Below, piece after piece: positions 41,744-43,106 of a DNA stretch of 43,106 nucleotides. Source of the stretch: Escherichia coli (GTDB taxonomy: Bacteria; Pseudomonadota; Gammaproteobacteria; Enterobacterales; Enterobacteriaceae). The stretch is from NCBI RefSeq assembly GCF_003334255.1, contig NZ_QOWU01000049.1, one strand, 5' to 3'. The notes under the pieces are model-generated. The model ran no database searches, was not told the DNA's origin, and saw only the letters and a list, made by a program, of their open reading frames with translations. A program made the translations under genes and the position numbers. Position 1 is the first letter of the stretch. Every line of letters begins with the position of its first letter.

Positions 41744-42864
41744 TTAATCAAACGAAAGACGCCGACGAGCACGGGATGCAGGCTTTACGACCGCCCGAGC
41801 CATCGCCTCACCAATTTCTGCACATGCCGTAAGTCCCTGAACGAAAGGCTGGTCGTGCATCAACCAGGGCAACGCGCCGAACGCTACGCGCCCACGAATA
41901 TCTTCGGGTTGCTGTAACGTATAATCTTCGCCAACATCAGGGATTTCATCCCCTGTTTTCTGTAATTGCTCGCGTAGCCCAGGGAAAGGGATATCTTTCA
42001 CTTTAAGCGGACGTTGTCCGCGGGCATCAATAAAAACGTCAAACGAGTAGCTGTTGTCTTCCGTTTTCAGGACGGTGCGCGACTCATTAATTTCCATTTT
42101 GTAGTCTTCACCGAGGGCGAGAATATGAATGATTCCCGCTTCACGTAAGGCAAGTAGGCGACGAATAGACTCTGAAGGGATTGCCGCATAATTATCGATG
42201 AAAACCCGGGCAAGGCCTTTACTGAACCGTTTATGGTCGTGTTCATTCAGATGTGGAACAATTTCCTGTACGGCTTCATGCAGGCGCAGAATGACATAAC
42301 GCCAGGGAACAGTATGTTTTTCTCGTTTATTGCGTTCGACTTCCTGGAGATTTTTTTCTGCCCAGTCAAATGGGTCGCGTTGTTTGCGCTCGGCAAACCA
42401 GGCTTGAGCAAAGGAATCGACATTCAGGCTCTCTAAGGCTATGCGTTGACTCCAGTCTGGATCAGCAAACTTGATTTCCTCTACTATCAATCTAAATACC
42501 CGATCCAAAAGGCCCTCTTCGCCTTTTTGAATCTCAGCATTTAATGCCTGATCGGTGACGATGTGTAAGGGCTCGTAGGGAATAGGGCAATAGAAATCGG
42601 CTTCGGGTAAAATACCCGTGCGCGACAACAACGTGATATTTAGCTTTTCACTTGCGTTATCGCGGTGAAAAACGACGTGTTGTTTATCATCTTCAATGAA
42701 CGAACCATGCTGAATAGCCACTGCCATTGCCGCATCCAGTCCGCTCAAGGATGTTCCCATAATACCCACGTTACACGCATCGACCTTTGCTTCCATCAGG
42801 CCTGACCACGGGCTGGGAAAATACGTTCGGGTTGCTTCTTCTTCATCAGGCCAGACGTGACCCG
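41744..42864 (-). pseudogene. ydhS: ydhS (FAD/NAD(P)-binding protein), 3' portion of about 373 codons; 5' end interrupted by an IS
   Basis: Track ORF 41744..42796 (MEAKVDACNVGIMGTSLSGLDAA...). The same frame stays open upstream (…HVWPDEEEATRTYFPSPWSGL-M…) with no stop up to the IS junction at 42865, so the gene appears truncated rather than starting at 42796. Expected full length of about 534 aa is from memory. Confidence 0.7.
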
Positions 42865-43106
42865 TGAACCGCCCCGGGAATCCTGGAGACTAAACTTCCT
42901 GAGAAAGAGGTAAACAGGATGACTAAAAATACTCGTTTTTCCCCCGAAGTCCGTCAACGGGCAGTCCGTATGGTTCTGGAAAGTCAGAGCGAATATGACT
43001 CACAATGGGCGACAATTTGTTCCATTGCTCCAAAGATTGGCTGTACGCCGGAGACTCTGCGTGTCTGGGTTCGCCAGCATGAGCGGGATACCGGGGGCGG
43101 TGATGG
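42865..43106 (+). mobile_element. IS3-family insertion sequence, IS629/IS3411/IS1203-like, left end with 5' part of orfA (orfA from 42918); continues beyond the window
   Basis: Begins TGAACCGCCCCGGGAATCCTGGAGACTAAAC (TG... terminus). orfA translation [63 protein letters not shown] matches the IS629-group OrfA HTH protein as I recall it. Confidence 0.8.

Follow-up and report, generated by a model that had tools for sequence, protein, structure and literature searches.

An IS629-group insertion sequence interrupts ydhS at a probable contig end of a K-12-like Escherichia coli

Insertion sequences of the IS3 family transpose by a copy-out-paste-in route that passes through a circular intermediate, and their OrfAB transposase, a DDE enzyme, arises from a −1 programmed frameshift that is stimulated by an ALIL pseudoknot in the group considered here. 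The closest described relatives of the element in question are IS629 (Shigella sonnei), IS1203 (E. coli O111:H-) and IS3411, all of which have the same terminus, TGAACCGCCCCGGG..., as the copy found in this work; IS629 counts IS1203 and IS3411 among its isoforms, its subtypes differ by 4–5%, and its target duplications measure 3–4 bp (PMC3271280). The interrupted gene, ydhS, spans 1605 nt in K-12 (534 aa) and has ydhT, which is convergent, and ydhR as its neighbours. Cells can do without it: the Keio collection includes a knockout, which shows reduced susceptibility to type VI secretion attack by Agrobacterium (PMC7012810). In an ST131 sublineage, a blaCTX-M-15 unit is integrated in the same gene (PMC9334617). 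Here, we analyzed a 43,106-nt stretch of E. coli DNA (the window), focusing on its 3′ end (positions 41744–43106), where ydhS meets the element.

The window comes from what is, on sequence comparison, a K-12-like E. coli. Positions 77–42866 follow K-12 MG1655 without any break in colinearity; their 42,790 nt contain 11 substitutions and 0 indels (99.974% identity), and this backbone rules out a Shigella or EHEC origin. The original prediction, made from the letters of the window, had hinted at such an origin from the type of the element; that hint is not supported, as the backbone is K-12-like, the IS is present in 3658 of the 5426 complete E. coli genomes searched, and its left end reaches only 95.0% identity to the EHEC IS1203-type copies compared. 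The same prediction had placed an IS1 at the opposite edge, and this was borne out: positions 1–77 are an IS1 terminus (the reverse complement of GGTGATGCTGCCAACTTACTGAT...) that adjoins the interior of selO (ydiU), the 3′ part of which lies at 78–672 and retains only codons 282–478. None of the complete RefSeq E. coli genomes among the best matches listed has an IS1 at this selO site. With each of its edges falling just within a multi-copy IS (IS1 on the left, IS629 on the right), the window is probably one whole short-read contig that assembly was unable to carry on through these repeats. A scan of the whole window at Rfam gathering thresholds matched RprA and RydB only, with nothing in 41744–43106; both sRNA genes are complete and at their K-12 positions, rprA at 20000–20107 (minus strand) and rydB at 25711–25771 (plus strand).

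The left junction between ydhS and the element can be read directly. K-12 has ...GACGTGACCCG|TGGCGATCACC at this site and the window has ...GACGTGACCCG|TGAACCGCCCCGGG, with the IS terminus, TGAACCGCCCC, starting at 42865. Although the match to K-12 reaches 42866, the IS start is set at 42865 because the last two bases (TG) are common to both sequences by chance. Direct reading and megablast agree on this position, so the left end that had been predicted at about 42865 is exact to the base. The trinucleotide CCG at 42862–42864, of which K-12 has a single copy here, forms the left copy of a 3-bp target-site duplication. From 42865 to 43106 (plus strand), where it is ended by the window edge, the element shows nt 1–242 of its 1310, including the 25-bp left inverted repeat (IRL, TGAACCGCCCCGGGAATCCTGGAGA) at 42865–42889 (plus strand) and, by translation, codons 1–62 of orfA, the upstream frame of the OrfAB transposase, which serves in DNA binding, at 42919–43106 (plus strand). 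The 242-nt piece matches IS3-family elements in the 3658 genomes mentioned above, where they are annotated as IS3 family, IS629 family or IS1203 family transposases. The best of these matches are at 100% (E = 8e-123), so the likeness is not due to chance, and a failure of the terminal sequence to align to an IS3-family element, which would have told against the prediction, was not encountered. The piece also occurs in 3108 plasmid records, mostly from Escherichia and also from Shigella, Salmonella and Klebsiella. The ydhS/IS junction itself is absent from all 5426 complete RefSeq E. coli genomes searched; the top matches with apparently full coverage of the junction were rejected, because they combine an intact ydhS with a separate IS in its vicinity, such as the one that strain B2 has between ydhR and tRNA-Val.

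What remains of ydhS on the other side of the junction is its 3′ fragment, at 41744–42864 on the minus strand (1121 nt, 100% identical to ydhS of K-12 MG1655), comprising two bases of codon 162, codons 163–534 and the stop. In the megablast search of the 5426 complete genomes, K-12 ydhS is a 100% match over 41744–42866 (query 1–1123), and the same 100% identity over the ydhS part is found in many strains besides MG1655. Set against the 1605-nt gene of K-12, codons 1–161 (30%) are missing from the window, in agreement with the predicted separation of the 5′ third. Translation of the minus strand likewise bears out the claim that the frame stays open up to the junction: it is open from the stop codon at 41744–41746 through 42864/42865, and then takes in eight IS-encoded codons before a TAG at 42890–42892. 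Between this TAG and the ATG at 42796, the first in-frame start of the remnant, there is no other. Gene callers report a 350-aa ORF from that ATG (41744–42796, minus strand), and a genuine ydhS start at this point had been named in the original prediction as the observation that would overturn it. This is ruled out, as the ATG is the internal Met185 of K-12 YdhS and a search of the sequence upstream of it found no promoter-like site.

The remnant lacks a promoter, a start codon and the N-terminal dinucleotide-binding domain. Its 373 codons match positions 162–534 of the 535 in the NCBIfam profile NF007381, with 785.8 bits against a cut-off of 783, and this score, the DNA identity to K-12 and the adjacent ydhT, placed as in K-12, together assign it to the YdhS family (PRK09897, FAD-NAD(P)-binding protein). 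Judged on these features, ydhS in the window is a truncated pseudogene fragment of that family. The 350-aa ORF product has no Pfam match, whereas PF13454 (NAD_binding_9) is carried by N-terminal YdhS fragments; gene callers give the same product in many assemblies with ydhS lesions of other kinds. For annotation, the called 350-aa "protein" is a pseudogene fragment, and a contig that ends at repeats should not be taken to end at a gene boundary.

Since the window holds only 242 nt of the element, its type was read from full copies. One such copy, identical to the window piece over its left 242 nt, is found in the E. coli swine strain B2, between ydhR and tRNA-Val (locus L001, 5039–6348). It is 1310 bp long, is flanked by a 3-bp TAG duplication, ends in ...GGTTCA, and has 25-bp terminal inverted repeats in which 23/25 positions pair. 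It carries orfA (108 aa) and, in the −1 frame, orfB (296 aa), and its PGAP annotation includes the programmed frameshift and the ALIL pseudoknot; the corresponding Rfam model, RF01497 (ALIL), scores 121.5 bits in the element of assembly GCA_001299315.1 (locus L011). OrfB of the full copy scores 314.6 bits against NF033516 (IS3 family transposase, cut-off 160), and full OrfA matches as well. The 62-aa OrfA piece of the window is too short to give an NCBIfam match by itself and is identical (62/62) to residues 1–62 of the 108-aa OrfA; the orfA/orfB frameshift and the DDE (rve) transposase features are accordingly those of full copies, the window copy showing only orfA codons 1–62. The window piece begins with TGAACC at 42865 and, taken with the right end of the B2 copy, has IS3-type termini (5′-TG ... 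CA-3′). The CCG duplication falls within the 3–4 bp typical of IS629, its two junctions coming from different assemblies.

Comparison of the 242 nt also places the subtype. The piece is 100% identical to a copy (H34) that PGAP names "IS3-like element IS629 family transposase" and has 95.0% identity to the copies of IS1203 type in O157:H7 N8B7-2 and O111:H8 9662, so the IS subtype in the window is not the main EHEC subtype. The combined likeness of its full copies in length (1310 bp), inverted repeats (25 bp), reading frames (orfA 108 aa, orfB 296 aa), −1 frameshift, ALIL pseudoknot and 3-bp duplication assigns the element, as far as its sequence features go, to the IS629/IS1203/IS3411 group of the IS3 family, and the original description of an IS629-like IS3-family element interrupting ydhS therefore stands.

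To the right, a hypothetical clean insertion was built from K-12 ydhS, the B2-type IS and the CCG duplication. The upstream product predicted from it consists of YdhS residues 1–162 and 53 IS-encoded residues (215 aa in all), and exactly this chimera exists in GCA_001299315.1 (L011); a 169-aa contig-end version of it is present in GCA_002190285.1 (L013) and in SRR3825894 (L014). The right junction reads ...CCCGGGGCGGTTCA|CCG|TGGCGATCACCGC in all three (in short form, ...GGGGCGGTTCA|CCG|TGGCGATC..., with the IS ending in GGTTCA). The original prediction had proposed that the IS right end and a 3-bp duplication be located and the reconstructed ydhS be aligned to K-12, and both checks gave clear answers: the IS right end, followed by a second CCG and the 5′ part of ydhS, was found in the three public assemblies just named, and the ydhS part of the window joined to that of L013, minus the IS and one CCG, equals K-12 ydhS with 0/1605 mismatches. 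Furthermore, the 515-nt IS right part joined to ydhS in L011 is 100% identical to the B2-type element, like the left end in the window. The left junction recurs in GCA_965136505.1 (L009, a 43,810-nt contig from an independent assembly), and the 11,121 nt that adjoin it there match the window at 100%.

No single assembly among those examined showed both junctions, and the assemblies with the left junction have no overlap beyond the IS with those that have the right one. Agreement in exact site, orientation and IS subtype and the K-12-like backbone on both sides point to a shared lineage, and the window's own genome presumably carries the right junction too. One transposition event with duplication of CCG, in a clone represented in several public assemblies, is the simplest account. 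We consider it highly probable that a 1310-bp IS629-group element transposed cleanly into ydhS, duplicating CCG and leaving a null allele in two pieces. The element would have entered between nt 484 and 485 of K-12 ydhS (coding strand), with its transposase reading opposite to ydhS and with the 3-bp target CCG duplicated on insertion, presumably by the transposition mechanism usual for IS3 elements. The upstream piece would then encode residues 1–162, containing the Rossmann-type NAD_binding_9 domain, fused to the 53 IS-encoded residues, and the downstream piece would be the 373 codons in the window, with neither a promoter nor a start codon of its own. As NAD_binding_9 (PF13454) is on the N-terminal piece and the 350-aa remnant has no Pfam match, the split should abolish YdhS function, and the allele is probably one of loss of function. 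No polar effect on the neighbours is expected, because ydhS is last in its transcription unit and converges on ydhT.

In the related assemblies, the element can be followed past the window end. The IS in L009 runs to nt 795 and then continues with GTGTGCCCGG... (L009 1–121, reverse strand), and in L011 a 2270-nt group II intron (11003–13272) directly follows IS nt 795, inside orfB. The L011 intron starts with GTGTG, matches domain V–VI of RF00029 at 64.9 bits and has a reverse transcriptase/maturase ORF of 502–507 aa with RVT_1 and GIIM domains; its site lies past the window end and was seen in L009 and L011. The E.c.I4 intron is known to home into the transposase genes of IS629, IS911, ISEc16 and ISEc31, and a single E.c.I4 fragment is given for MG1655 (PMC3522654). 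An intron in the ydhS-resident IS of L009 and L011 fits this known homing of E.c.I4 (IntA) into IS3-family transposase genes, and the ydhS-resident IS of these assemblies appears, from contig paths through repeats, to carry an intron of E.c.I4 type. The first 1764 nt of the intron are 99.7% identical to a segment of K-12 CP4-6 that contains the annotated sRNA eyeA and the ORF ykfC. This segment (L015 6192–7955, equal to NC_000913.3 272191–273954) extends from the end of an IS911A fragment to the start of IS5A, which puts eyeA inside the 5′ portion of a truncated intron.

The L011 element is also a hybrid, and this bears on whether the IS at 42865 now marks something other than the original insertion. 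Its right 515 nt are of the window/B2 type (100%), as described above, and its left 795 nt (13273–14067) are of IS1203 type, being 98.7% identical to the O111 IS1203 copy and 95.7% to the subtype in the window. The left end adjoins ISEc23, not ydhS, and is followed by IS110-family and Tn3-family genes onward to 20648; no exact counterpart of this IS/ISEc23 arrangement was found in complete genomes. In at least one relative, this IS is therefore a site of rearrangement or of mis-assembly; the hybrid arose either when intron-bearing copies of the IS recombined or as a chimera of the assembly. Homologous recombination between IS629 copies or their introns after the original insertion may have turned the IS at 42865 into a rearrangement breakpoint—by inversion, deletion or translocation—so that the 5′ third of ydhS no longer lies across this IS copy. 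Such a history would account for the arrangement at the 5′ part of ydhS in L011, and N calls in L009 at those IS positions where copies differ point to several IS629 copies in the genome. Nevertheless, we regard it as unlikely: L011 may be a chimera assembled across the 2.3-kb repeated intron, the left end in the window and the right end in L011 are both 100% B2-type, as expected of the two halves of one element, and the same initial clean insertion would still be required.

Far less credible again is an error of assembly at the junction, in which reads from ydhS were fused to a repeated IS to give a chimeric contig end. Both window ends do lie in multi-copy IS, which is typical of fragile contig ends, but the identical left junction is present in the independent assembly L009, and the complementary right junction is present with its 3-bp duplication in three other assemblies, whereas an artefact would give no target duplication. 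Clean transposition of an IS629-group element into ydhS remains the reading that we prefer.

Insertions of the same kind are present elsewhere. In O157:H7 N8B7-2 (target-site duplication AAC) and O111:H8 9662 (CAG), ydhS is likewise interrupted by an IS629-group element, in the same orientation relative to the gene and with 3-bp duplications. Their sites differ from that in the window, at distances of about 20 nt and 550 nt. Both are IS1203-type elements in EHEC backbones, and the two insertions are events independent of the one described here. The IS629-group copies in ydhS occupy L002 4145–5454 and L017 2070–3379, and an IS5 interrupts ydhS in GCA_036495925.1 (L004, about 8721–9917). Five further loci (L005–L008 and L010) show single substitutions, apparently nonsense, or small frameshifts. 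The tally in public assemblies comprises three independent IS629-group insertions, one IS5, three apparent nonsense changes and two frameshifts. These cases came to light by way of the 350-aa remnant ORF, out of a very large collection, and are not a measure of excess over neutral decay. That loss of ydhS is repeatedly selected in E. coli, and not merely tolerated, seems to us quite improbable.

The event is an ordinary one, already known in kind: by a familiar route, a common IS has entered a gene that the cell can spare, and the clone is already in public databases. Its value is that of a strain-level marker only, being a null allele of a non-essential and poorly characterised oxidoreductase gene produced by an IS that is among the commonest in E. 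coli. As such, the ydhS::IS629 (CCG) junction could mark the lineage of a K-12-like clone that also carries selO::IS1.
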